DNA of 64,000 nt. It comes from Candidatus Rokubacteria bacterium RIFCSPLOWO2_02_FULL_73_56. Its GTDB lineage: Bacteria; Methylomirabilota; Methylomirabilia; Rokubacteriales; CSP1-6. The stretch spans positions 1,074 through 65,073 of the forward strand of contig MGCF01000114.1 of assembly GCA_001788495.1 (NCBI GenBank). Reading direction: 5' to 3'. Shown in pieces: positions 418-64,000 of the stretch; position 1 is the stretch's first letter; the number at the start of each line of letters is the position of its first letter. Made by a program: the position numbers and the translations under genes. A model generated the notes under the pieces. It worked only from the letters and a program-made list of their open reading frames with translations, did no database searches and had not been told where the DNA came from.

Positions 418-1494
418 CTACCGCACCGCCGCCGCGGTCCGGCAGACGTAGATGCTGTTCTGCGGCCCCGGGGCGTCGAACACCTCGACCGTGCCGAAGC
501 CGGCCTCGGCGAGGAGCCGCCGCGCCGCCTGTTCGCCCCACGCGGTGCCGAGCCCCGCGCCGCCCTCGGCGAGGGAGACCGTCATGCAGTGGAGCACGCT
601 CATGCCGTACATGTACGGCGTGAACGGACTGCCGATGTTGTCCTCGAGGCGGCTCGACGCCTTGGGCTCGACCATGAGGTAGATCCCGTCCGGCGCGAGC
701 GCGGCCGCGATGCGGCGGAGCACCGCCGCGGGATCGCGCTGGTCGTGGATCGCGTCGAACGTCGTGACCAGGTCGAAGGCCGGCTCGGCGGGCAGCCGGG
801 TCACGTCGAGCGCCTCGAAGCGCGCGTTGGCGAGCCCCAGGCCGCGCGCCTCCTCGCGGCCGCGCGCGACCGCCTCCTCGCTCCAGTCGTAGCCGACGAA
901 GGTCGAGCGCGGGTACGCGCGCGCCATCACGTTGACCGCGTGGCCCGTGCCGCAGCCCACGTCCGCGACGCGGAGGCCCGCCGCGAGCCGCTCGGGAAGC
1001 CCCTGCGCCACGGGCAGGAAGCCCTTGACCAGGAGCCCGTCGTAGAGGAGCCGCCACGAGGCGTCCTGCGCCTCGGTGAAGTCCGGCCGGTACGCCGCGT
1101 ACGGGACGCCGCCACCCGCACGGAAGCAGTCGATGACCTGCGGCAGGCGCTTGGCGAGCATCGTGAGCGTCTGGCTCGCGGGCGCCAGGTTGCGGCTCGA
1201 CGTCCCCGTCAGGCACGTCGCGTGCTCCGGCGGCAGCGTGAAGCGTCGCGACGTCCGGTCGTACTCGACGACCCCGCCCGTCGCCATGGCCGCGAGCCAC
1301 TCGCGGACGTAGCGCTCGTCGAGCCCCGCGCGCGCGGCCAGCTCCGCGCTCGTCGCCGGGCCCTTGGCGGCCGCCTCGAAGAGGCCGGTCTTGAAGCCGA
1401 TCTGCACCATCAGCGTCAGGAGCCCGCTCGTGTAGAAGCCGAAGAGCTTGCGGGCGAACTCCTGGACGCGCTGCCGGTCGAGCGTGGGCTCCAT
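418..1494 (-). CDS. Class I SAM-dependent O-methyltransferase (family-2-like, with N-terminal winged-helix dimerisation region), 358 aa
   Basis: ORF 418..1689 trimmed to ATG at 1494-1492 (MEPTLDRQRVQEFARKLFGFYTSGLL...). A GGGGAGGG Shine-Dalgarno sits 4-11 nt upstream. The in-frame extension to 1689 is Arg/Pro-rich low complexity. SAM motif I is VADVGCGTGHAV, followed by FDLVTTFDAIHD (motif II/III-like). Stop is TAG at 420-418. Confidence 0.8.
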   Translation of the reverse strand: MEPTLDRQRVQEFARKLFGFYTSGLLTLMVQIGFKTGLFEAAAKGPATSAELAARAGLDERYVREWLAAMATGGVVEYDRTSRRFTLPPEHATCLTGTSSRNLAPASQTLTMLAKRLPQVIDCFRAGGGVPYAAYRPDFTEAQDASWRLLYDGLLVKGFLPVAQGLPERLAAGLRVADVGCGTGHAVNVMARAYPRSTFVGYDWSEEAVARGREEARGLGLANARFEALDVTRLPAEPAFDLVTTFDAIHDQRDPAAVLRRIAAALAPDGIYLMVEPKASSRLEDNIGSPFTPYMYGMSVLHCMTVSLAEGGAGLGTAWGEQAARRLLAEAGFGTVEVFDAPGPQNSIYVCRTAAAVR

Positions 1495-1669
1495 GGTCCC
1501 TCCCCGCGGCCCGGGGCCGGCCGCTGGCCGCACGATAGGGCGACGACCGCCCGCGATCAAGCGGCGGCGGCGCGCGCGAGGAGACCGGCGCAGACGCGCA
1601 CCGACGTCAGGATCGTGACCCTGGGGGACGGCGTGCTGGAGGGGGGAGCCGTCCGGCGCCGGCAAGGAA

Positions 1670-1690
1670 CGTGTCAGACGGTCTGACACG
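1670..1690. promoter_or_regulatory. Perfect 21-bp palindrome CGTGTCAGAC-G-GTCTGACACG, plus a third GTGTCAG half-site at 1695-1701; candidate enhancer/operator (UAS)
   Basis: Read directly: 10-bp inverted arms with no mismatch around a central G, in the divergent intergenic region. Its centre is 94 bp upstream of the sigma-54 -24 GG. Confidence 0.55.
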
Positions 1691-2046: not shown

Positions 2047-5000
2047 CTACCACCAGCAGCCCGGCTTGGGCGCCGGCTTGGGATCCGGGCGGATGACGAA
2101 GGCCTGGTCGTGGGCCTCGTCGTCCAGGTCGAGGTCATAGTACGGTGCCCACGGACTCGGCGAGCCGAGCGCCTGGCTGGTCCCGTACACGTCCAGGTGC
2201 CCCGCCCAGATGACCAGGCGCGCCTTCAGGATGTTCGCGAGCGTCGACGAGGTGTCGTGGCCGCTCCGGATCGTGTCCCGGTCCTTGCTCTTCTTGCCGG
2301 TCGCGCCCTCGAGCGTGTCGCTGTCGCCGCCGCCCACCAGGTAGTCGTCGCCGTCCCCGCCGTATAGCCGGTCCCGGCCGTCCTGGCCGAACATCACGTC
2401 GTCGCCGGCGCCGCCGTAGAGCGTGTCGTCGCCGGCCGTGACCTGGAAGTCCTCCTGGTCGTGGTCGTCGTGATCGTCGTGGTCGTGGTGCTCGTGGTGG
2501 TGCCACCAGCCGTGGTGGTGCTCGTGGTGCCCGATCTCGGTGAGGTCCTCGACCGCCTCCCACGCCTCGTCGATCGCCCAGCGGTCCTGCCAGCTCGGGC
2601 TGAACGTCGTGCTCACGTTCGGCGCCACCAGCGCGAGGCTGTCCCCGAACATCACGTCGTTGCCGTTGCCGCCGTCGAGCACGTCGTTGCCGAGCGTGAC
2701 GATGTCACCGGCCCCGTGGTGATGCCAGCTGCCGTGGTGCGACCAGTAGTCGTCGTGCCACGCCTGATGGCGGTGGCGGCCATGGTCCTTCCAGCCCCAC
2801 CAGTCGCCGTCCCACCAGTCACCGTCGTGCCAGCGGTGGTGCGGCTTCGAGGCCTTCCCGCCCTCCGTCAGCGTGACGTTCGCCGTCAGGTGGAGCTTCT
2901 GGTCGCCGACCAGGAGGTCGTCGCCGTCGCCGCCCAGGAGGGTGTCGGCGCCGATCGAGATCCGGTCCACGTGGTGGCGGAGCACGTCCTTCCAGGACCA
3001 GCCGCTCTTCACCTGGACGATCTCGTTGCGCAGGTGGTGCTGGATGTCGCCCAGCTCGAGCGCGGCGTGCTCGAGCTCCCCGCCGACGAGCTGGAGGCCG
3101 TCCACCAGGAACTCGAAGTCGTCCACGAGGGCGACCGGCATGGTGAAGTTCTGGGCGAGCACCGTGGAGTCGTCGCCCACCAGCACGTCGTTGCCCGCGC
3201 CGCCGTCGAGGAGGTCGGCGGCGATCGTGATCGTCGCGTCCACGACGGTCTCCTGCTTCCAGATGCCCGACCGCCACAGAGCCTCGGACACGGCGTGGTG
3301 GAGGACGGCCGTGAGGTCCGCGAAGTCGTCGGCGATGTCGAGCAGGTCGCCGGTCAGGCCGATCGCCTGCTCCATGCGCGTGTCCGTGAAGACGAGGGAC
3401 GCCGCGAGCACGGTGGAGTTGTCGCCGACCAGCGTGTCCTCGCCCGCGCCGCCGGTGAGCGTGTCGTTGCCGGCGACCAGGTCGAGGTGCGAGCGGACGT
3501 CCGGCACGACCGAGGCGAACGGCACGAGGTAGCTGCCGTCCGCACGGTGCAGGACGTTGTCCGCCGGGAAGAGCGGGATCCCGCCCAGCACGCCGAGCAC
3601 CGCCGGCAGCGGGTCCACGTCGTGGCCCGGGACCACCGATACCAGGGGCACGAGCGTCGTGCCGTCGGGGCCGAGCACCACGCCGGCGGCGGCCTCCACC
3701 GAGCCGGGGCCGGCGATGAGCCGGAGCGCGTGGACGACGTTCGGCACCGCGCCGTCGCCCGTCACGACCGTGGACCGGTCGCCCACGAGCTGGTCGTCGC
3801 CGTCGCCGCCGTCGAGCACGTCGTCGCCGAGGTCGCCCTCGAGGTAGTCGTTGCCGGGGCCGCCGGTCAGCGTGTCCTCGCCGCGGCCCGCGTAGAGGGC
3901 GTCGTCGCCCGCGCCGCCGTCGAGCACGTCGTCACCGTCCGGCACGAGCGTGACCAGGAACAGCTCGGTGTCCCACCGGTGCGTCCAGTGCTCCCACCAC
4001 CGGACGGGCGCCCGGTCGGGCACCAGGTCGTGGCCCCCGTCGGCGTCGAAGGCGCCCGTGACCAGGATGAGGTCGGCGCCGACGAGCGCGGCCGCGAGCT
4101 CCGGGGTGAGGTCGTCCCAGCGGAGCCCGTCCAGGTCGTACCGGGCCGTGAGCATGCCCACGTCGGTCAGCCAGACGTCGCGGTGCACCGAGCCGTTCGG
4201 GTTGAGCCGGCCCATGCGCTCGATCACGCCCGTGTCGCCCAGCAGGATGTCGTGGCCCGCCTCGCCGTAGAGCGTGTCGTTCCCGAGCTCGCCGTACAGC
4301 TCGTCGTCGCCCGCACCGCCGTAGAGGGTGTCGTCGCCGTCCTGGCCGTGGATCACGTCGGCGCCGCCGAGCGTCGGCGGGCCCGACGTCACCAACGGCG
4401 GCGTCACCGTGAGGTCGACCGTGCCGTTGTCGCCGACGACGATGTCGTTCCCGGTGCCGGCGGTGATGAAGTCGTCCGCCGCGCCGCCGAGGATGATGTC
4501 GTCGTTCGCGCCGCCCTCGATCGTGTCGGGGCCGCCGATCGTCGGGTCGGTCGTCTCCACCCGCGTCACGACGCCGGCGGTGCGCATCACGATCCCGTTG
4601 TCGCCCAGGATCACGTCGAAGCCGGCGCCGCCGGTGAGCAGGTCGCCCTCGGCGCCGCCCAGGATGATGTTGTCGCCGGCGCCGCCCGTGATCGTGTCGG
4701 CACCGCCGATGGCGGGCTCGGTCGTGAACACGTCGCCGCCGACGATCACCTCGCCGTTGTCGCCCAGGATGATGTTGGTGCCGCCCGGCGCGCTGATCAC
4801 GTCGGCGAAGGTGCCGCCCAGGATGATGTTCTGGCCGCCCAGGCTGGTGATGGTGTCCGGGCCGCCGGTGGTCCCGTCCTCGTCGCCCGTGATGACCCGC
4901 GTGACGACGCCGGCCGTCCGGAGCACCGCGCCGTTGTCGCCGAGGACCGTGTTGGTGCCGCCGCCCAGCGTGATCGCGTCGCCCGCCGCGCCGCCCAGGA

Positions 5001-8000
5001 TGATGTTGTCCGCGCCGCCGAGGATCACGTCGGCGCCGCCGATGGCGGGCTCGGTGGTGACCACGTCCCCGTCCACCACCACGTCGCCGTTGTCGCCGAG
5101 CACGATGTTCGTCCCGAACGACGCGTCGATGACGTCGCCGCCGATGCCGCCCAGGATGACGTTCCGGCCGCCCAGGCTCACGATCACGTCGGCGGCGCCC
5201 GTCGTCCCGTCCTCGTCGAACGTCTCCACGCGGGTCACCTGGTGGTCGCCGTCGCGGTACACGATGCCGTTGTCGCCCAGCACCGTGTTGGTCCCGCCGC
5301 GCAGCGTGATCGTGTCGCTGCCGACGCCGCCCAGGATGAAGTTGGTGCTCCCGGCCAGGATCGTGTCGTCGCCGCCGAGGTCGGGCTCGGTCGTCTGGAT
5401 GTCGTTGGCCACCGGCTGGTTCAGGGTCACCTCGCCGTTGTCGCCCAGGAGGATGTTGCTGCTCCCGCTCGCGGTCTCGATCGAGTCCTGGCCCACGCCG
5501 CCCAGGATCACGTTCACGCCGGCCTGGCTCAGGATCGTGTCGTCGCTCGCCGCCAGCGGCCCGAGGTCGGTCGTGAACACCTTCGTGACGTCGCCGAGGG
5601 TCCCGAGCGAGATGCCGCCGTTGCGGTTCACCTGGCCGTTGTCGCCCAGGACCACCGCGGTGCCGCCGCCCAGCGTGATCGCGTCGTTCCCGAACCCGCC
5701 CAGGATGATGTTGTCGCTGCCGGCCAGGATCGTGTCGTCGCCGCCCAGCGTCAGCTCGGTCGTCCAGATGTCGTTGGCGAGCGGCTGGTTCAGGTTCACC
5801 TCGCCGTCGTCGCCCAGGATGATGTTCTGGCTCCCGCCGGTCGCCTCGATGCGGTCCGCGCCCACGCCGCCCAGGAGGATGTTGGTCCCGCCCTGGCTCA
5901 GGATCGTGTCGTCGCCACCCGTCGCGCTCGTCGTGTCGGTGGTGACCACGCGGGTCACCGTGGTGACGAGCTGCCCGAGGGCGTCCAGCGCGCCCGTGCG
6001 GCTCACGTGGCCGTTGTCGCCCAGGACCACCGCCGTGCCGGTCAGCAGCTCGACGTGGTCCTGGCCGAAGCCGCCCAGGATGACGTTGTTGCTGCCGGCG
6101 AAGATCTGGTCGGCACCGCCGAGGTCGAGGTCGGTCGTGAAGACGTCCTCGTCGCCGACCCGGTTCAGGTTCACCACGCCGTTGTCGCCGAGCACGATGT
6201 TGTCGCTGCCGCCCGTCGCCTCGATCGTGTCACCGGCCACGCCGCCCAGGATGATGTTCACCCCGCCCTGGCTGAGGATCGTGTCGGGCCCGCCCGTCGC
6301 GGCCGTGCCATCCGTGGTCCGGACCTGGGTCACGACCCCGGCGGTGCGCGTCACGGAGCCGTTGTCGCCGAGCACGGTGTTCGTGCCCGCGCCCAGCGTG
6401 ATCAGGTCGGATCCTGCGCCGCCCAGGATCGTGTTGGTGGCGCCGCCGGTGATGACGTCGTCGCCGCCGACCGCGAGGTCGGTGCTGAAGATGTCACCGC
6501 CGACGTTCACCTCGCCGTTGTCGCCCAGCACGACGTTGCTGCCCACCGGGGCGTCGAGGAAGTCGCCGGCGACGCCGCCCAGGATGATGTTCACCCCGCC
6601 CAGGCTCGTGATGTGGTCCACGCCGCCCGTGAGCGCGCTGCCGTCCGTCGTGAACACGCGGGTGACGACGCCGCCCGTGCGGAGGACGTGGCCGTTGTCG
6701 CCGAGGACGACGTTGGCGCCGCTGTTGAGCGTGATCGTGTCCTGGCCGAAGCCGCCCAGGATGATGTTGTCCGCAGGGCCGGTGACCGACACGCCCGTGG
6801 CCTCGATGACGTCGTCGCCGCCCAGGTCGAGGTCCGTGGTCTGCACGTCGCCGTCGACGATCACGTCGCCGTTGTCGCCGAGGACGATGTTGCTGCTGCC
6901 CACCAGCGCGTCGATCGTGTCGCCCGCCACGCCGCCCAGGATCACGTTCACGCCGCCCTGGCTCGTGATGTGGTCCACGCCGCCCGTGAGCGCCGTCGTG
7001 TCCGTCGTCGTCACCTGCGTGGTCTGCTCGCTGCCGTCCCGGCGCACCACGCCGTTGTCGCCGAGGACCACGTTGGTGCCCGAGCCGATCGTGATGTCGT
7101 CGGGCCCGAAGCCGCCCAGGATGATGTTGTTGCTGCCCGACTCGATCGTGTCGTGGTCGCCCAGCGCGCCGGGGCCGCTCACGATCGAGTAGATGTCGTT
7201 GCTCACCGGCTGGTTCAGGTTCACCACGCCGTTGTCGCCGAGGATGACGTTGGCGCTGCCGACCAGCGCCTCGATGACGTCCTGGCCGACGCCGCCGAGG
7301 ATCACGTTCACGCCGCCCTGGCTCGTGATCGTGTCGCCGCCGCCCGTCGTGGCCAGCGTGTCGGCCGTCGCGACCTGCGTCGGCGTCTCCGCGCCGTCGC
7401 GGCGGACCACGCCGTTGTCGCCGAGCACGGTGTTGGTGCCGCTGCCCAGCGTGATCTCGTCGGCGCCGAAGCCGCCCAGGATGATGTTGTTCGTCCCTGA
7501 GAAGATGAAGTCCCGGTCGCCCAGGTCGAGCTCCGTGCTCTCGATATCGTTGGCCACCGGCTGGTTCAGGTTCACCTCGCCGTTGTCGCCCAGGATGACG
7601 TTGCGGCTGCCGCCCGTGGCGTCGATCCCGTCCTCGCCCACGCCGCCCAGGATCACGTTGACGCCGGCCGTGACCGTGATCGTGTCGCCGCCGCCCGTGC
7701 CGGCCGTGACGTCGGTGCTCTTCACCTGGTACGGCGTCTCGCCGCCGTCGCGCCGCACCGTGCCGTTGTCGCCGAGCACCGTGTTGACACCGCCGAGCAG
7801 CCGGATCTCGTCGGCGCCGAAGCCACCGAGGATGATGTTGTTGCTGCCCGAGAAGATCTGGTCGTCGTCGCCCAGCGCACCCGGCCCGTCCACGATCGAG
7901 GCGATGTCGTTGGCGGCGGCCTGGTTGAGGTCCACCACGCCGTTGTCGCCCAGGATGATGTTGCTGCTGCCGCCCGTGGCGTGGATCTCGTCCCGGCCCA

Positions 8001-50000: not shown

Positions 50001-53000
50001 CGGGCGCCTTGGCCTCGAGAAGGGCGAAGGCGAAGTCCACGCCGGTCAGCGCCAGCCCGGTCGCGCCGGGGGTGCCCGCCGGCCCGTTGACGCCCGCGAA
50101 GGCGCTCACGCCGGTCGCGCCCAGCGTCAGCAGGTCGGCGGCGACGGGCGCCGTGCCGCCGGGGAGCGTCGCCTGGGTCGAGCGCTTCTCGAACTCGAAG
50201 GTGCCGCTCACGAAGAAGAACCCGAACACGCCGAGCTCGATCGTGCCCTTCGCCCGCAAGAGGGTCCCGGCCGCGCCCGGGAAGTCGAGCGTGATCGAGT
50301 TGCCGCCGCCGGTGTTGACCGCGAGCGGCGTCGTGGCGAAGTCGACGACCGCGCTGTTCGCGCCGGCACTGCTCGTGCCGCCGCCCTGGTTGATCTCGAT
50401 GCTCAGGTCCGTCACGCCGACGGTCAGCCCGTCGATGCCCAGGAACGTGGCGCTGCCGACCGTCGCCCGGAGCGCCGTGAACGTCCTGAGGTCGGTCGGC
50501 ACGGCGGGCGCGGCCGGCCGGGTCCGGCTCAGCAGCGCCAGCGCGAAGCCCACGTCGTGCAGGCTGAGCCCGACCGCGGCGGGCGTGCCGCCGTTGAGGC
50601 CGGCGAAGGCGTCCACGTGGCTGGCCCCGATTCGCAGCGCCTGCACGCTGATCGGCTCGGCGTCCCCGACCACCTGCACCGTCGTCGTGCTCTTCTCGAA
50701 CGCGAAGTTGCCGCTGACCTGGAAGAAGCCGTAGACGTCCAGCGCGAGCGTGCCCTCGGCGCGGATCAGCGTGCCCGCGGCGCCGTCGAAGTCGAGCGTG
50801 ACGAAGTCACCGGGATTCGGGCCCGTCGCCACGTCCATCGGCGCCGCGCCGAAGTCCACCACCGTGGTGTTGGCGGCGCCGTTGAGCGTGCCGCCGCCCG
50901 AGTTGACGTCCACGTGCAGTCCGGTCGCGCCGATCGTCAGGCCGTCGATCCCGACGAAGTGCACGCTGCCCACGCTCGCCGTCAGGGCCGTCCAGGTGCG
51001 GAGGTCCGTCGGCGTCAAGCCGGCGGCCGGCGCCCTGGCCTTGAGGAGCGCCAGGCCGAACTCCACGCCGGTCAGCTCGAGCCCGATCGCGCCGTCGTTG
51101 CCGGCCGGTCCGTTGACGCCGGCGAAGGCGTTCACGCCGGTGGCGCCGACGGTGAGGCGCTCGACCTGCACCGTCGAGGGCGTTGTGCCGTCGGTGACCG
51201 TGACGGAGGCCGTCTCCGACTTCTCGAAGGCGAAGCTGCCGTCGAGGAACACGAAGCCGAGGACGGCCAGGTCCACCGTGCCCGCCGCGCGGAGCAGGCT
51301 CCCCTGGGCGCCGTCGAAGTCGATGACCTCGGTGTTGCCGCCCCCGGTGTTCACGGTGAGGGGCGCGGCCGCGAAGTCCACCACCGTCGTGTTCGCCTCG
51401 GCGCCGTTCAGGCCGCTCCCGCGGTTGACGTCGAGGTGGAAGTCGCTCACCGCCACGGTGAGGCCCTCGACGCCCACGACGCGCGCCTCGCCGATGCTCG
51501 CCCGGAGCGCCAGCCACTTCCGGAGATCGGTCGGCGGCGTGAGCACCAGCGGATCGATGACGGGACTCATCATGGCGATCCCGAACTCCACCTGACGGAG
51601 CGCCAGGCCGAGCGCCGTGCCGTTCAGCTCCTGCGACTCGCTCGGGTCGATGAGGCCGTTGCCGTTGGCGTCCGCCCCCGTGGGCACCCCGTTGCCGTCG
51701 AGATCGGTGAAGTACGGACCGTTGATCCCGACGAACGCGCCGAGGTCGCTGCCGCCGACCGTGACGAGATCGACGTCCGCCGACCCGCCGCCACTCAGGC
51801 CCACCACGCGATGCGGGAGCTGCTCGAAGGCGAAGTTCCCGTCGAGGTACACGAAGCCGGCGAGGGCCAGGTGGCCGTTGGTCACCGTGACGCGCAGGAA
51901 CGGACCGGCCGGGATGTCGACCGTCACGCCGTCGATCTCCGTCACGGCCAGGGTCGTCTGGTTGAGCGTGAGCCCGAACGTGCCGCTCACCTCGAAGCCG
52001 TCGATGTCCGGCCCGGCCACCAGGTCGATCGACAGCGTCCCGGCGAGCCCGCCCGGCGACGCCTCGGGCCCGGTCGTCGGCGCGGTGAGCTTGAAGGCGC
52101 CGCGGCCGTTGGCCAGCTCGACGATCCGCGTGGGCCCGGCCGTCAGCGTCAGCTCGACGTCCCGCGCCGTCACCATGATCACGGTCGCGGCGCCCTCGGT
52201 GGTCTTCCGCAGGCGGAACTGGCCCTGGAGGTGCTGGCCGAACGCGTCGAGCCGGCCGCCGAACTCGATGACGAGCTCGGGCGCGACCGGGCCGAAGAGG
52301 TTCTGCGAGTCGACGATGATCCGGAAGTTGCCCTCCGCCGCGAACGGGAAGCCCGCGATCGGATCGCTCGTCAGCGACGCCGTGAACGGCAGGTCGACGT
52401 GCAGCTCGGCCCTCGGCGTGATCGCGAAGAGGCTGCCGATCGGCGTCGCGATCAGGGCGGGCAGCGTGATGCGCCCGTCCACGGCCGGCGCCGTCGGCGC
52501 GAAGGCCACGTCGGCGCCGGCCTGGAGGAAGATCCGCCCGTTGTCGACGCCCGCCGCGAAGCTCCCGACGGCCAGGCCCAGGTCGATCGCGCTGCCGTCG
52601 ATGGTGATCGTGGCGCCGATATGCTCGATCTCGACGAACGCGTCCGCCGCGCTGAGCCCGCTCGTCAGCAGGTTCGAGAGGTTCAGGCCGAAGACCACGT
52701 TGAACTCGAAGTCGGCCTCGAGGTGGATCTCGGCGGCGGCGGTCACCGCGACCAGCGACCCGCCGAGCACGTCGTCGAAGCTCAGGTCGAAGTCGAAGCT
52801 CGGGTTGATGCGGACGGCGATCTGGAACTGCAGCTCGATCCGCCCGCCCTCCGTCACGAGGGCGGCGCCGATGCCCGAGCCCTGGATCTTCCGCTGGGTC
52901 TCGCCGAGCACGACGTCGAACAACCCGCGCAGCGAGGGCGACTCGCTCGCCGCCGTGCGCGCGTCGAAGTAGGCCTCCACCGCGTCGTGGAGCCTCAGCA

Positions 53001-56000
53001 GGTCGCCGATGCCCGGGGAGCTCGGGCCCACCAGGAGCCGGTTCACGCTGAGGCCGATGAGCGGCAACGGCTGGTCCAGGGCGTCGATGCCGAGGATCGC
53101 GTCGCCCAGGCTGTCCATGTGCCCGAGGAGGTCGAGGAACACCTGCTGCAGGTCGACGTCGAGGAGCTCGACCAGCAGCTCGGCGATCGGGTCCCCGGGC
53201 GCGGGGGCGATGTCGAAGTCGAGCGGGCTGGCGATGTCCTCCCACGAGAAGATCAGGCCGACGTCGACGAGGGTGAGCGGCTTGCTCAGGCCCGGGAGCA
53301 GCGCGGCGACGCCGAACGTGCCCGCGAAGACCACGTCGGTCGCGGCCGGGTTGCCCTCGACCGCGAGCGTGAAGTTGCTCGCGTCGAAGTCGGCCAGCTC
53401 GTGCGGCCGGAGCTTGCCGGGCGCCTCGCCGGTGAGCGCGTCGACGCGCGGGTCGTGCAGGTCGAGGCCGAGCCGCACGGCCGGATCGATCGTGACGGTG
53501 GCGTTCGTCAGCTGGAGCTCGATGAACCCGAAGGCGCCCGCCCCGCTCAGCGCGCCGATGGTGATGTGGGTCACCTCGATCTCGGGCCCGCCGAAGGCCT
53601 CCGTGTCGACGAAGAACCCGCCGTCGTCCACGCCGACCAGCATGTGGACGACCATGTCGAGGCTCAGCTCCATCGAGCCCCGGATGGACACGAGGCCGCC
53701 GAGCAGCGAGAGGTCGAGGCCCGGCCGGCCGCTGAACGACGTGACCACGGTCATGTCGAACCGGGTGCCGGCGGCGTCCTCGATGAGCGTCACGTTGTCC
53801 GGGACGGCGTCGAGGTCGTCGAGCGCCTGGCGGAGGGCCGCGGGGCTGTCGATGCTGACGCCGATCTGGTCGAGGACGCCGGCGAGCAGCCGGCCGATGA
53901 GCGTGTCGGGGTTCGTCACCGGAGTCAGCGCCGCCGCCCGCCCGCCCCGCTTCGCCACCTCCGGGAGGCCCAGGCGCTCGCGCTCGGCCGCCGCCGCCGC
54001 GCGCTCCGCCTCCTGCGCCACGAGGTCGCCGAAGGTCGCGCCGGCCTGGCCGGGCGGCAGCGGCACCGGCCGCACCGGCGGATGGTTGCCGCTGACGGCC
54101 TGCCCGAGCGCCGGCACCATCGCGATGTTCTGGGAGCCGAGCGCGTCGCCGAGCTGGTTCACCAGCGCCAGCGAGTTCAGGCCGGAGCGGAACGCCCCCA
54201 GCACGCCGCCCGGGACGTCGAGCTGGCGCTCGCTCGGATCGACGTTCTCGTACCGGACGGTGAGCACGATGCCGAACTCGCCGCCGATCCGGATGACGCC
54301 CGCCGCGCCCGCGCCGCCCGTCAGGACCGCGTCGCCGTCCTGGCCGACGATCAGGAGGCCGTCGGTGCCCGTTCCGCCGTCGTAGCGGATGCCGCCCGAC
54401 ACCCGGACGCGGCTGTCGATCTGCAGCCGGTCGTCGCCGCCGCGGCCCTCGACGACGATGCGCTCGATCGTCGTGAGCTGCTGGCTGCTGACGACCGCGC
54501 CGTCGACGATGACGTTGACCAGGCGCGGGTTGACGGCGTCGAGCTTCAGCCCGAGCTCGTTGTCCCCGTCGTTGCCGCGGACCGTGAGGACGGCCTCGCG
54601 GCCGAGGAGCGCCGCGGCGCCCTCGAGCTCGAACGCCCCGCGGCCCAGCGTCGCCACGACGAGCGTCCCGCCGACCGTCCGGCCGTCGACGATCGTCGTC
54701 TCCGGCGCGTACTGGATGTCGTTGATCGGCATGTTCGGCAGGCCGAGGCCGAGCTCCGTCCAGGTGAGGTTGTTGACGCCGCCGCGCAGGACGACCGTCG
54801 CGGCCGGCTGGATCGCGCCCCCGCCGCTGCTCTCCCGGATCGGGCTGTCCGGGAGCGCCGGCGCCGTCGTGTCGAAGCGCGCGAGCTTCGCCGCGAACAG
54901 CGCGGAGACCGCGGCGTTCGCCTCGAGCACCTCGACGATGCGCCTGGCGGTCGTCGCGGCGTTGACCCGGAAGGTGAGCGTCCGCGTGGGGGCGTCCCAC
55001 GCGACGGTCTCGAGGCCCGCGGCCACGCCGGCCTCGTAGCGCACCGTGACGTCCACGAACTCCACGGCCTGGTTGCGCGCCGTGAACGTGACGTCGTTGT
55101 CGGGCCCCGCGGACAGGAGGGTGCCGGTCACGATGCTCGCCGGGAGGGACGACGGATAGCCGTCGCTGTTCGACGGGTCGCCCACGGGGTTGATCGCCCG
55201 GAACACCCCGTCGTTGACCCCCACCAGCAGCACATCCACCGGGCGCTGGTCGCTGCGCACGCCGCGGCCGTCGTTCAGGAGGCTCAGCAGCGTGTCCCCA
55301 CGGACGGCGGCGAGCGTGCCGCGGAGGACCGCCCCGTCGATGACGCCGCCGACGCCGCTGTCGCGCCGGGGCGCGCCCGCCGCGAGGAAGCCGAGGTCCT
55401 CGAGGGCGAGCGAGCTGTTGAGCCGCACCAGCGTGAAGGCCGTGGCGTCGGCCGTGGCCAGCCGCAGGTGGTCGGCGCCCTGGAGGGTCACGTTCACGCG
55501 CACGGGCCCCACGCCGCCCAGCCTGGAGGCGTCCTGGATCGCCGTGATCACGTCCTGGACGGTGTGCGCCGCGGTCAGGTCGACGCCGAAGGTGCTGCCG
55601 TCGCCGAGCGTGATGGACAGCGACGGGCCCGCGGTGGGCGCGGTCACCTTCGCGAGCGCCAGGCCGCGCACGCGCTCGACCGGCAGCGCGCCGCTGCGGG
55701 CCGCCGCGCCGGTGATGTCCGCCCAGGTGGTGCCCCCGTCGGTGGTGGCGTACACGTGCGCGTCGTCGATCGCGTAGGCGATCCGCCAGTTCGACGGGTC
55801 GACGACGAGGCGCGTGATGCGGCCGGCGTTCGCGATGCTGACCTCGGCGCCGAAGCTGTTGACCAGGTTGTTGGGCCCGACGCCGGCGGGTCGCACGGCG
55901 ATCCGGTTCTCCCGCGCCTCGTAGATCACGTCCGAGGCGTCGGTGCCGTCGGCGGCCCGGACGCCGAACGCCAGCGCCGTGATCGGGAACCCGCTCGGCT

Positions 56001-59000
56001 GCGGCGCGCGGATGCGCGTCACCGTCTGCCCGCCGTCGAAGCTCTCGTAGAGGCCGCGGTTGCCGACCAGGAGGCGGAGCGCATCGACCGGGCTCAGGGC
56101 CATCGGCAGCGGGATCCGGAACTCGCTCCGTTCCTCGGCGTCCATGCCCGCCAGCCTCACCCGCAGGGAGTCCGCAGCCAGGTGGGGGCCGTCGGCGAAG
56201 GTGAGGTTGACGTTCTGGTCGTTGTAGTGCTTGACGAAGAAGAAGCGGAAGTCGTTGTTGGTCGTGTAGAAGTACGCCTCGGTCGAGGTCGAGCCGGCCG
56301 GGCCGTTGACCGCCGTGCGCACGTCGTTGGCGGTGGACACGGTGGTCCGGACGCTGACGAGCAGCGTCCGGGTCTGCGCGTTGTAGCTGGCCGTCTCCGT
56401 CCCTTCCGCGTGGTCCACGAACCGGACCGTCACGCCGTTCCACCGGGCGCCGACGACGGCGGCCTCGAAGGTCATCGCGTTGTTGCCGGCCCCGCTGGCG
56501 GGCACGACCAGCGTCGCCTTCGCGCCGTTCGTGCCTCCCGCCGTCACGGCCGGTGTGTCGCCGCCGGCGAAGGTCCCGCTGCCGTCGTGGTTCGCGTCGC
56601 CGGCGCCGCGCGCCGCCGTGAAGGTGCCCTCGGTGGTGATCAGCGCGATGACCTGATCGGCCGTCGTGCCGGCCGTCAGCTGGATGCCGAGGGTCGGCGT
56701 CGCGCCCGCCGTGAAGGACACGTGGACGGGGCCCACGCCGATGTCCTGGACCGAGACGGTCAGGTTGTTCAGGTCCGCGCCGCCGCGGTTGGCCACGAGC
56801 ACGATGGCGTTGCTCGGGCCGGCCGGGTTGAGCTCGCCGACCGCGCGCAGGGCATCCAGCCCGCCGGTGGCGCCGGCCACGGGCGGGGCGACCGTGGTCA
56901 CGTCGATGGTCCCCGCGCCCGTGTCGGGGCCGGCGGGCGGCAGCAGGACGAACGGTCGGAGGTCGAGCCCCGCGAGCGACGTGTTGCCGTCGCCGGCGCC
57001 CACCGTCAGGAAGTCGCCGGCCGAGTCGCTGACCAGCTGCTGCTGGGAGGCCGCGTCCTGGGCGCCCGTGATGAAGGTGTCGTTGAGCGGGTCGTAGCCC
57101 AGGCTGTAGAGCTCGCCCAGCGCCAGGTTGCCGCCGAGGACCTGCCAGTACCGCGCCGAGGGCGGCCCGTGCGGGTTCACGAGACGGGCCAGGCCGCCGT
57201 CGTTGGCCTGGAGCACGTTGCCCGCCCCGTCGAAGACCATCGTCCGGGCGTCGGAGTGCGGCGCCGTCCCCGTGACGTAGACCGGCGGCTGCTCGACGAG
57301 GCTCCAGGCGAGCCCGGCGTCCGAGACGCCGCTGTCGTTGATGTTCGCCGTGGCGTTGCCCAGTGCGGCGCCGGTGTAGCGGAAGACCGTGCCGCCGTTG
57401 GTCGCCACGGCGCCGGCGACCGTGCGGAAGATCGCCTTGTGCGTCGTGCCGTCGGGGCCGTTCGGGACGTTCTCGAGCTGGGCGAAGTTCCGGCCTCCCG
57501 GCACGGTCACGGGGATGTCCACGGTGCGCTGGCCGAGCCCGTCGAAGCTGGCGCCCGCGAGGTAGGCGATGCGATAGATGTACGTCTGGCCGGGGACGAG
57601 CTGCCCGCCCGCCGGGAACGACGCGTGCCCCACGGGGACGTTGAAGAACCTGACGGTGATGCCGGCCACGCTCGGCGGCGCGTACACGCTGGTGAGGACC
57701 CGGGCCGGGGGCAGCGTCGCGTCGGCGGCGAGGTCGACGATCCGCGTCGCGAGCACCGGGACCGTCGGGCCGAGCGGGTCCCGGCGCAGCTGGTGGAAGA
57801 TCTCGCCGTTCAGCTTGGTCCGCCAGATGATGCGGCCCACCGTGCCCGCCGGACCCTCCGGGAGGTTGGTGAGGACGACGGCGTCGTCGGCGCCGCCGAC
57901 GACGACCGAGAACTCCGGCGACGGCGAGCTCACCTGGCCGTCCGCGGCGACGAACGAGATCCGATAGCGGTACGTGCCGGCGGCCAGAGCGCCGCCGAGG
58001 TTCGCGGCGGTCGCCGTGGTGTTCGGCAGCAGGTCCGCCGGGGCGTTCTGCAGACGGTCCCAGAGGATCGGCTCGGTCAGGAGCGCCGCGTCCGACATCG
58101 CGTCGTCGACCGACGCGCCGTCGGCCACGCGCCGCTCGGCGACCAGGTGGTACTCGCCGTCGGGCAGCGCGTCCAGGCCCGCTCCGCCCGGGAACGCCGC
58201 GGGCGTGACGCCGACGTTCCACGTCCGGTAGACCTTCCAGGCGACCACGTTCGAGCCCGCGGGGAAGCCCGTCGGCGCCGTGATCCGCACGGTCTGGTTG
58301 CCGCCGCCGAGGTCCACGCGGATCCGGTCGGAGGCGACCATCTCGCGGCCGTCGGCGTTCACGTACGTGATCCGGTAGTAGTACCGGCCGTTCGCCGCGA
58401 GCGCGCCGCCCGCCTGCGGGTCGAGCGTGAAGGCGTCGGCGTCCGGGAGGGCGGCCGCGCGCCCGGTCGGCTGGAACGAGCCGGTCGCCTGCCGGCCGAC
58501 CACCTCGGTCGTGGTACCGGCCGTCGTGTCCACGCGGAAGATGCGCCCGTCGAGCTGCAGCGTGTGCTCGAAGCCGGGCGTGGCGACGTTGGTGTCGCCC
58601 GCGATGAGGAACACGTTGGGGTTGCCGGGATCGGCGACGAAGGCGAGGTGCAGCCCCCACTGGCCGCCGGGGTTGAGCCCGAGCGGCGTCGGCGCGTCGT
58701 CCTGGATCTCCAGCGTGACCGGGCCGTTGTCCACGAACGTCCACGTGCCGCGGGCGCCCAGCGTGTCGTTCGTGTTGGCCGACGTGAGGACGCGGTTGAG
58801 CTGCGCGCCCTTGACGCCGGACGGGGGCGCGACCACCGCGTAGACCGTGGTCGCGTGGACGTTGGCCGGGTCGAGCGAGGGGCGCCCGTCCGGCTCCAGC
58901 ACGAAGCTCGCGGCGAACACGATCCGCCCCGCGTCGAGCCCGCGCGTCGTGAAGTCGTACGTGCGGTTCACGGCGGCGACGACCTCCTCCACCCGGGTGA

Positions 59001-62000
59001 CGCCGGTCTGGAGGTTGACGGTCAGGGTCTTCGCGACCGCGTCGTACTCGACGCTCTCCCGTCCGGCGAACCTCGCGAGCCTGTAGATCACCCGGAGGCC
59101 GTCGAGGTCGGCGCCGTTCCGTGCGGCCGTGTACCGGATGGACTCCACCAGCCCGGACGCGGGCGCCGCCACGCCGCCGCCCGCGGTCACGGCGGCCCGG
59201 TTCAGGGCGGGGACGGTGTCGCCGCCGACGACGGTCGCCGTGAACGGCGGCAGCGCCATCGCGTTGATCGCGGCGGCGACGTGGCTCGCGGTCGTGACGC
59301 CGCTCTGGATCTGCACGGTGATCCGGTTGGTGGCGGCGTCGTAGCTCGCCGTCTCGTTGCCGACCGTGACGCTGTCCACGTACTCGACCGTCAGCCCGTC
59401 GAACGCGGTCCCGGTGCGGTTCGCCGAGAACCGCACGGAGCCGAGCACGCCCGTGGACGCCGTCGTCGCGCCGCCGCCCGCCGTGACCGCGCCGCTCGGG
59501 CCGCCGCCGGCGACGACCGTCACGTTCGGGCCCGCCAGGGAGGCGGTGAAGGGCCGCACGTTCGCCAGCGCCGTCACGACCTGGTTCAGGGTGGAGACGC
59601 CGCTCGCGACGGCGAGCGTGAGCCGGTTCGTCGCCGCCTCGTAGCCCGCCCGCTCGTTGCCGGCCGTGACCGTGTTGACGAACTCGACCGTCAGCGCGTT
59701 GAGGTCGGCGCCCGTCCGCACGGCCGTGAACCGGAGGGTGCCGCCCGCGCCGCCCAGGATCCCGGTCGAGAGCGCGCCCGCCCCGCCCGCCGTCGGGACC
59801 GCGCCGTTGCGGATCGCGACCGTGACCGTGACGTCGGCGAGGGCCGCCCCGTACGCCGGGCTCGGCAGCCGGTTGATCGCGTCCACCACCTGCTGCGCCG
59901 TGGTCACGCCGCTCTCGATGCGGACGGTCAGCCGGTTGGCCACCGGGTCCCAGGTGGCCTGCTCGTTGCCGGCCGCCACGCCGCCGACGTACTGGATGGC
60001 GAGCCCGTTGAACGCCGCGCCGTTGCGGCTCGCCGTGACGCGCACCGTCGTCCCGGCCACCACCTCGCGCTCGCCGACGAAGGCCGCGTCGAACGCGCCC
60101 GCGGTGACCTGCGTGAGCGCCGCCGGCGCCGGCATCGTGCTCACCGCGGCGCCGGGCCCGCCGAGCGTCGCGACGAACGGCCGCTGGTCCGTGATGGCGG
60201 CGGCCACCTGCCCCGGGATGGTGCGGCCGTCCTCGATGACGACGCTCAGCACCCGGGTCGCGGGATCGTAGTGCGCCCGCTCGTTGCCGGCCGTCACGCC
60301 GCCCACGTAGGTCACGGTGAGATTGTCGAAGGCCGCGCCGGGCTGCCGCGCGGTGAAGCGCAGGCTGCCCGCGACCCCCGACGCGTTCGCGGCGACGGCG
60401 CCGCCGAAGGTCACCGTCGGGGTCGTCCCGACGCCGAGCGCCGCCGTCAGATCCACGACCGCGGCCGTGTAGTCGGCCGTCGGGGCGGCGAGGCGGTTCA
60501 CGGCCGCCCGGACGTCGCTGGCGCGCGACTGGCCGTCCTCGAGCGTGACCCGGAGGAGGTGCGTCCCCGCGTCGTAGGTCGCGCGCTCGCCGCCCCGCGT
60601 CGCGCCGCCGACGAACTCGACCCGCAGGCCGTTGAACTGGGCGCCGTTGCGCGTCGCCGTGAAGCGCACGCCGGCCAGGTCGCCCACGGCCGCGGTGCCG
60701 AGGTCGCCGCCCCGGGTCACGACGGTCGGCCCGCCGACGTTCACGGGCGCGTCGGGGGCGGCCGGCACGAGCGTAGCGGTGAACGCGGGCTGGGCCGTGA
60801 GCGCCGCCACGACCTGGGCGGGCGTCGTCCGCCCGTCCTCGATCGCGACCCGCAGCGTCTTCGTGTCGGGGTCGTAGCTCGCGCGCTCGGCCCCGGCCGT
60901 GGTGGCGTCCACGTAGACGACGCGCAGGCCGTCGAGCGCGGCGCCGTCGCGCACCGCCGTGAACTTGACCGCGCCGAGCAGGCCGAACGCGGGCGCGCCC
61001 ACGCCGGGCGTGACGGCCGCCGCGGCCACCACGCCCGTGGTCACCGTCGTCGTCGAGGCGACCGCGGCCGCCGTGTAGCCGGGCGCCGCCATCGCGTTCA
61101 CGGCGACGATGACCTGGTCGGCGCTCGAGACGCCCGCGGCGATCTGGACCGTCAGGGTGTTCGTCGCCGGGTCGTAGGTCGCGCGCTCCTTGCCCTGCTC
61201 CGCGCCGTCGACGTACGCGACCCTGAGGTTGTTGAACTGCGGCCCGGTGCGCGTGGCGGTGAAGAGGATCGCGCCGAGGGCGCCCGCGGAGGCCACGCCC
61301 GTGCGGCCGTCCTTCGTGACCTCCGTCGGCGCCGTCACGTCCACGACGACGCCGTTCGTCGCGTCGGGCGCCTTCGGCGCCGCGGTGAAGGGCCGCAGGT
61401 TCGTGACGGCGGCCGCGACCTGGGTCGGGGTCGACACCCCGGGCTCGAGCGCGATGGTCAGCGACGCCGGCGTGCCGGCGGCGGGCGCCGTGTAGGTCGC
61501 CCGCTCGTTGCCCGCCGTGACCCCCGCCACGTACGTGACCCGGAGGCCGTCGAAGTCGGCGCCGCCGGCCCGGGCCGTGAAGCGCACGGCCCCGAGCGTG
61601 CCGGCCGAGGTGCCGGCGGTGCCGCCCGCCGTCACGTCGTTGGCGACGCCGTCGGTGACGGCCAGCGCGCCCGTGAACGGCAGGCCCGGCATGCGGTTGA
61701 CCGCGGCGATGACCTGGCTCGCGAGCGACACCCCGTCGGCGATCCGGATGGTGAGCTCGTGGGTGGCCGGGTCGTAGGCGGCCGTCTCCTGGCCCGCGGT
61801 GGCCCCGGCGACGTAGGTGACGCGCAGGCTGTCGAAGGTCGCGCCGAACTTCGTCGCCGTGAACTGCACCCGCGGGCGCGTCCCGACGGCGAACGCCGCG
61901 GCTCCCCCGGGGGTCGTCACGACGAGCAGGCCCGAGTCGGCGACGCCGACCGTGCCGTCGGCGCCGTCCGGGGCGGCCGTGAAGGGACGCTGGGGGTTGA

Positions 62001-64000: not shown

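Follow-up and report, generated by a model that had tools for sequence, protein, structure and literature searches.

The window analysed here, a stretch of 64,000 nucleotides from Candidatus Rokubacteria bacterium RIFCSPLOWO2_02_FULL_73_56 (contig MGCF01000114.1, positions 1,074 to 65,073), carries on its minus strand one giant open reading frame (ORF), and we were interested in a tandem repeat of about 100 residues that is encoded in it. As judged from the ORF list and the translation, the window part of this ORF extends from 2047 to 64000 (20,650 codons; stop codon at 2047-2049) and runs off the right edge; the list starts this minus-strand frame at 63909, but it is actually open to the window edge. 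A metagenome scan led to contig Ga0209751_10000207 (locus L001), which shares 4,658 bases with the right window end at 99.96% DNA identity, extends upstream of the window and supplies the N-terminal 2,022 amino acids. The frame start is an ATG at L001 position 3935, giving a gene of 68 kb and a complete protein of 22,672 amino acids (2.3 MDa, isoelectric point (pI) 4.2, one cysteine). Two more metagenome contigs carry the same sequence with 100% and 93% protein identity. At a regional GC content of ~72%, the GC fractions at the three codon positions were 0.69/0.50/0.99 for the giant ORF and 0.70/0.58/0.99 within the array, the value of 99% at third positions (GC3) indicating that the frame is coding.

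From 58906 to 63909 (minus strand) the translation is uninterrupted and the repeat unit is directly visible as G-x-L-G-x-V-R-F-T-A ... G-N-E-R-A-x-Y-D ... L-T-V-x-I-x-D-G-x-T-T-x-x-Q-V ... F-T-A, with a period of ~100 residues. An initial annotation, made from the sequence and its ORF list, had described this RFTA...QV repeat as at least 16 tandem copies over 58906-64000 and had assigned it to no recognised family. The repeat proved to be real by translation, by hidden Markov model (HMM) and by a single-copy phmmer control. The HMM, built from the obvious copies, located one edge-cut copy, 15 tandem copies (58873-63405) and three isolated divergent copies in the window, all on the minus strand, and the array runs past the right window edge. 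The repeats thus stand, while the single run does not, as copy 5 of 23 (63745-63975, minus; independent E-value (i-E) 5e-20) is split off from the 15 tandem copies by a BNR-like insert of 113 amino acids (63406-63744, minus). The N-terminal end of copy 5 is cut by the window edge; it is complete in L001, at protein residues 2030-2108. Translation and motif scan revealed the motifs SLDGGRTF and SEDRGRSW in the insert. In NCBIfam, the insert weakly resembled the F510_1955 glycosylhydrolase family (32 bits vs a cut-off of 175).

Copies 6-20 are arranged head-to-tail on the minus strand between 63405 and 58873, with 90-105 amino acids and an i-E of 3e-26 to 1e-36 each. Their HMM-defined ranges are 63103-63405, 62809-63093, 62488-62802, 62209-62478 and 61891-62190, followed by 61615-61875, 61294-61602, 60988-61284, 60694-60984 and 60388-60684, and finally by 60085-60378, 59779-60051, 59461-59751, 59164-59451 and 58873-59154. 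Isolated copies had been noticed before at ~56296-56506 and ~54886-55096; both are present, and their number rises to three with the previously unlisted copy 21 (56521-56811, minus; i-E 6.6e-10, or 1.2e-19 when the full protein was searched with the A1 profile), which sits just upstream of copy 22 (56302-56478, minus; HMM i-E 2.3e-12, phmmer 7.7e-5). Copy 22 is without the C-terminal third of the unit, and copy 23 follows at 54862-55092 (minus; HMM i-E 1.2e-9, phmmer 1.3e-3). Over the full protein, the 23 copies (15 tandem and eight dispersed) fall into four blocks at residues 1407-1584 (two copies), 1807-2108 (three), 2221-3729 (15) and 4416-5070 (three).

As a non-circular control, one copy was used as phmmer query with itself masked and retrieved 21 other copies (i-E 1e-3 to 5e-21); 50 shuffled queries recovered none. 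Protein identity between copies is 30-60%, and this explains why Tandem Repeats Finder reported nothing in the array, the copies being too divergent as DNA. Within the main array, identities of 46, 44 and 47% at even lags vs 42, 42 and 41% at odd lags indicate that two repeat subtypes (A/B) alternate. The main array probably grew via duplication of two-copy blocks, with adjacent copies staying dissimilar. Reuse of the module by duplication and insertion, as initially suggested, is thereby borne out, both by this period-2 pattern and by the distribution of the 23 copies over four blocks split by BNR-like and Fn3-like segments. Conserved positions are mainly hydrophobic core residues and turn glycines, with no cysteine, no histidine and no catalytic-looking motif.

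An exhaustive profile search, of the kind proposed in the initial annotation, found the module in 897 representative proteins at E<=1e-3, 376 of them at E<=1e-10. Among the top 150, ~70 match flagellin N- and/or C-terminal regions (62 both) and ~14 match the terminal regions of FliD (nine both), and every flagellin example scanned with Pfam contained Flagellin_N and Flagellin_C. These flagellin/FlgL and FliD relatives carry two to six repeat copies in their central region, between the conserved ends. The remaining ~66 of the 150 include proteins of 4,000-7,000 amino acids with LEPRxLLS N-termini, for example a hypothetical protein from Opitutales and 'beta strand repeat-containing' proteins from Thermodesulfobacteriota. 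The named flagellar examples, a flagellin (E=3e-18) and a FliD (E=4e-18) from Pirellulales (Planctomycetota), each aligned directly with the window array in BLASTP. A 400-residue piece of the array gave no relative in the GTDB representative genomes, a set that does not contain the source genome. By these profile matches, the repeat is a member of an uncurated domain family common to flagellin/FlgL, FliD and giant LEPR-XLL proteins. In characterised flagellins, the central region forms surface-exposed outer domains (see also PMC6248924).

Searches against curated families gave a consistent picture. Pfam-A, searched with the whole protein and with each copy, showed only scattered sub-threshold matches on the repeats, and NCBIfam showed no match on them. 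The best hit among PDB sequences had E=0.41 with the window profile and E=0.017 with a family profile of 67 sequences, the latter to a 38-residue hairpin of OspA. When these 67 diverse family members were compared with Pfam, no family was matched by more than five of them. The absence of a recognised family therefore holds for Pfam-A, NCBIfam, PDB sequences and Foldseek against the PDB, and a confident match to an immunoglobulin (Ig)-like or cadherin-like family, named at the outset as the result that would refute the observation, was seen neither with Pfam nor with the PDB profiles nor with Foldseek against the PDB. No description of the repeat domain was found in searches of the literature on giant flagellins, Flagellin_IN and LEPR-XLL.

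Some partial likenesses were considered and rejected. For KTSC (PF13619), a Y-D...L-x-V hairpin matches profile positions 7-26, only 20 of 58, and the best single copy reached E=0.26. Summed over copies, the signal amounted to 20.6 bits in a 5,000-residue chunk of the window protein and to 25.9 bits in P0003, whereas a true member would be expected to exceed 25 bits over the full-length domain. P0003 is a JGI fragment of the giant gene and the sole match of the 1,511-residue array in a word-indexed protein search; its precomputed public annotation as PF13619 stems from summed partial hairpin matches and is likely a mis-annotation that could spread. The likenesses to KTSC, HMA, OspA and peanut lectin are all partial hairpin or helix matches.

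For structure prediction, which had also been proposed, the window's own copies served as AlphaFold input alignment. The one-repeat model is compact (mean predicted local distance difference test (pLDDT) 79.5, core 86-92; predicted template modelling score (pTM) 0.71), with the predicted order strand, strand, strand, strand, 9-residue helix, strand and then a linker strand. A two-repeat model shows the same fold twice with short linker strands between. The repeat is thus predicted to be an independently folding domain of ~85 residues with a Gly/Thr-rich linker of 10-20 residues. With a helix between its fourth and fifth strands, this compact alpha/beta fold is not of the Ig-like or cadherin-like beta-sandwich type. 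Foldseek with the two models found no solved fold in the PDB (best E=0.38). In a viral model library, the best matches were uncharacterised large Caudovirales proteins (E=6e-4 to 1e-2; TM 0.56-0.67), which are suggestive as fold matches and hold no information on function.

As the Flagellin_IN family (PF07196, 'flagellin hook IN motif') is also represented in the flagellin, FlgL and FliD proteins that carry the repeat, a question of classification rather than of role is whether the repeat might be a divergent Flagellin_IN below the detection threshold. In these flagellar relatives, the repeats lie between Flagellin_N and Flagellin_C or FliD_N and FliD_C, adjoining IN-motif matches, and the beta-domain of the Sphingomonas flagellin p5 contains an IN motif (PMC9751261). 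In the repeat as in the IN motif, a strand is followed by a turn and by a helix that closes with a hydrophobic-Asn pair: the strand-4-to-helix segment LTVxIxxGxTTAxxVxxA[IV]N resembles the IN motif, with the I-N pair in many family members. Alignment of the family with the IN-motif alignment by hhalign gave a weak profile-profile signal of P=2.3e-4 over 26 columns (strand 4 and helix), though with a probability of 44% and only a quarter of the domain aligned. One of 19 window copies matches PF07196 at E=0.069, but only two of the 67 family members reach E<1, the other 65 lying below Pfam thresholds. The gathering threshold of 22.7 bits was reached neither by the window copies nor by the family members, and the whole protein was without a match; an in-house IN-motif HMM gave nothing but sub-significant matches in the giant protein, mostly within the repeat's own helix. 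In addition, IN-motif matches and repeats occupy different places in the flagellar proteins, with one of 81 such matches overlapping a repeat, and the PF07196 model has 55 positions vs ~85-95 conserved in the repeat. Membership in disguise is therefore unlikely, and by its profile scores the repeat would not be counted as a PF07196 member at any threshold tested; a distant relationship to the IN-motif region, with the repeat as the longer unit, is possible.

We then considered the host protein as a whole. An LEPR-XLL motif (NCBIfam NF012209; 30.3 bits vs a cut-off of 17) is found at residues 28-49 and reads EALEPRLLLSGDP, and the N-terminal sequence shows no sign of a hydrophobic signal peptide. 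RTX-type calcium-binding nonapeptide repeats near the C-terminus are encoded at 2308-4365 (minus; Pfam HemolysinCabind, 56.4 bits vs a cut-off of 23), the match falling in four stretches, and partial NCBIfam matches to RTX_toxin and serralysin were obtained as well. Besides these C-terminal RTX repeats, Pfam explained almost nothing of the 22,650 residues scanned. The last 2,000 amino acids have a pI of 4.05 with 17.6% Gly and 12.3% Asp. By motif scan, the repeat blocks are separated by BNR-type S-x-D-x-G-x-T-W/F segments and by Fn3-like Y-x-Y-R-I modules, both undetected by Pfam. BNR-type motifs (S/T-x-D/N-x-G-x-x-W/F) and propeller-like segments were observed between the blocks at 63406-63744, at ~55746 and at L001-encoded residues ~1340-1780, and four Fn3-like Y-x-Y-R-I modules lie in the BNR-motif region.

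Further observations concern the C-terminal part. In the C-terminal half (~2050-34000, minus), several other long repeat classes without Pfam match were noticed, namely a unit of ~170-190 residues ('DxRxWxAL...VGIDGLT...VNxxxG'), one of ~100 residues ('ITDxxxEFxLxGxGLG...VRYxxTGAFAxxGAVTAxFTxGTWS') and one of ~90 residues ('W.V.L...Y.V..GDT...IA..LA..IN'), the last with a spurious partial LysM match. The C-terminal ~280 residues (2050 to ~2900, minus) form an acidic tail after the RTX repeats that is extremely rich in His, Trp and Asp, for example HHRWHDGDWWDGDWWGWKDHGRHRHQAWHDDYWSHHGSWHHH and EIGHHEHHHGWWHHHEHHDHDDHDDHDQ. This tail may bind metal or serve as an anchor; its last residues, PKPAPKPGCWW, contain the sole cysteine of the protein.

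Upstream of the giant gene, L001 encodes a SecA-like ATPase of 646 amino acids (L001:1055-2995), directly followed by an HlyD-like membrane-fusion protein of ~300 amino acids (L001:2775-3824), which is directly upstream of the giant gene; a further HlyD-like gene lies farther upstream. The SecA-like protein comprises DEAD motor, preprotein cross-linking and second nucleotide-binding domains, is ~250 residues shorter than canonical SecA and is closest to proteins from Rokubacteria/Methylomirabilia genome bins (66% identity). Along with the GC content, this similarity points to a Methylomirabilota source, though it is no proof of one. Of 66 genome loci in which the downstream sequence is long enough, 50 have kept the SecA-like/HlyD-like pair, in many phyla (for example at loci L006, L013, L017, L054 and L079), and in seven loci the pair is followed by an LEPR-XLL gene. 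It may represent a dedicated export module, although no description of such a SecA-like/HlyD-like system was found. Three Desulfobacter-type loci of the same context have an LEPR-XLL protein directly next to it, and two of these proteins, when scanned with Pfam, contained DUF4347 together with cadherin and Big_9 repeats. The host protein is probably exported without the Sec signal-peptide route, via a type-1-like system, as suggested by its RTX repeats and composition and by the HlyD-like gene beside it. On the other side of the giant gene, a downstream gene at 418-1689 (minus; 423 amino acids) combines an Rv2258c-like winged-helix (helix-turn-helix) domain with a class I S-adenosylmethionine-dependent methyltransferase domain and has no evident link to the giant gene.

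A GC3 of 99% also leaves alternative frames with few or no stops. A second minus-strand ORF at 50807-63514 (4,235 amino acids) was rejected as a by-product of this bias, as were the plus-strand ORFs, including the many antisense ORFs of 80-200 amino acids that overlap the array between 59357 and 63874. Neither the ORF at 50807-63514 nor the antisense ORFs over the array should be annotated as genes.

Taken together, the repeat most likely, with a probability of roughly 55%, takes up the extender slot in a giant protein that is modular, secreted and adhesin-like and that would be surface-exposed. The 15 tandem and eight dispersed copies would form a beads-on-a-string chain of small stable domains giving reach and spacing, and this chain would project the BNR-like, Fn3-like and long C-terminal repeat modules away from the cell and space them, while the module, as part of flagellar proteins, would decorate the surfaces of filament, junction and cap. 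Support for the extender slot comes from the other LEPR-XLL proteins in the same gene context, as these carry cadherin and Big_9 repeats instead. Several points weigh against an extender of this kind. The arrays are interleaved with BNR-like blades and could thus be propeller loop insertions instead of a linear stalk; the conserved polar residues N/D18, E33, Y37 and D38 could form a binding site, which would favour ligand binding over a role in structure only; and the inter-domain geometry of the two-repeat model is uncertain (pTM 0.60; pLDDT 62-68 in four of five models). In addition, the neighbouring ATPase is SecA-like, and the 3.9 kb of available upstream sequence held neither an ABC transporter gene nor a TolC gene, which makes the export route uncertain.

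In an alternative that we regard as doubtful, the repeat is a mobile 'surface-coat' domain that giant LEPR-XLL exoproteins and the axial proteins of flagella (flagellin, FlgL, FliD) have exchanged across phyla. The arrays would then be loop insertions between BNR-type propeller blades, echoing the out-and-back insertion in flagellins, and export would proceed via the SecA-like/HlyD-like system and not via a classical ABC-type type 1 system.

Alternatively, the repeats might be multivalent ligand-binding modules, lectin-like or matrix-binding, with the array acting via avidity and not via length. The conserved polar residues do cluster in turns (N/D-G before strand 2 and G-N-E before strand 3, with Y-D in strand 3), a position on the flagellar filament surface would suit adhesion, and the central beta-domain of flagellin p5 was reported to bind alginate (PMC9751261). 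As the likeness to lectins and carbohydrate-binding proteins is at chance level (peanut lectin E=0.26-0.4 and OspA E=0.017, over 36-41 residues each), and as 15 near-uniform tandem copies are more typical of spacers, we consider ligand binding as the main role to be rather improbable. Very unlikely is a lateral self-association of the repeats, forming a coat on the filament and bundling giant-protein molecules into fibres or into a layer on the surface. Other bacteria are known to have outer flagellin domains in mutual contact along the filament, a single organelle has this module in its filament, junction and cap proteins alike, and the alternating A/B subtypes could pair between molecules, but their alternation is equally explained by the duplication history of the array. 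Finally, the readings as an artefact, with the GC-rich repeat being non-coding or mis-assembled, or as a divergent unit of the Ig-like or cadherin-like type can be regarded as effectively refuted, since a GC content of 72%, which does yield long spurious ORFs in several frames, is set against the GC3 of 99% in a stop-free frame of 68 kb, the same sequence in three independent metagenome contigs (93-100% protein identity), copies that differ by 40-70% and thus would not collapse in assembly, and homologous domains in hundreds of other proteins, the Ig-like variant being excluded by the predicted alpha/beta topology and the absence of any Ig or cadherin match.

The family to which the repeat belongs has at least 897 representative members without a Pfam or NCBIfam model, and no solved structure was found for it. 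It links giant secreted proteins from several phyla with the parts of planctomycete flagella that are exposed on filament, junction and cap, and its curation would bring annotation to extensive 'dark' regions in giant flagellins and other very long proteins. Whether a non-Ig fold is able to act as an adhesin extender would become apparent from a structure of the repeat. With 68 kb and a product of 2.3 MDa, the host gene itself is among the longest bacterial genes, its product being unusually long for an LEPR-XLL protein, and the conserved SecA-like/HlyD-like pair beside it may merit study as an export system.

Compared with known systems, the host protein shares the LEPR-XLL motif above the cut-off with several giant repeat-containing proteins (N-termini such as LEPRIMLSA), although the NF012209 model covers only the N-terminal ~24 residues and says nothing on the repeat. 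The central domains of large planctomycete flagellin, FlgL and FliD proteins, which belong to the outer, hypervariable region and for which no published structure or function was found either, are homologous to the repeat over the whole ~90-residue unit (profile positions 1-93 in many of them) and likewise occur in tandem, in sets of two to six copies. There, the copies lie between the terminal helices of a flagellar subunit, whereas here they are part of a non-flagellar protein of 22,672 amino acids, 15 of them in a single run. In LapA, SiiE, MpIBP and similar giant RTX adhesins, bacterial Ig-like (BIg) or cadherin-like repeats serve as extenders. Units of ~100 residues, long tandem arrays and an acidic, cysteine-poor protein ending in RTX repeats are common to these adhesins and to the protein described here, and the apparent role is alike; the adhesin repeats are all-beta sandwiches, in contrast to the predicted five-stranded sheet with a helix of our repeat, and share neither sequence nor Foldseek similarity with it. 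A tandem extender repeat of ~100 residues in a giant acidic RTX-type exoprotein is therefore known in principle, while the module found here seems to represent a domain family, so far neither described nor curated, that has a non-Ig alpha/beta fold and is shared with planctomycete flagellar proteins.

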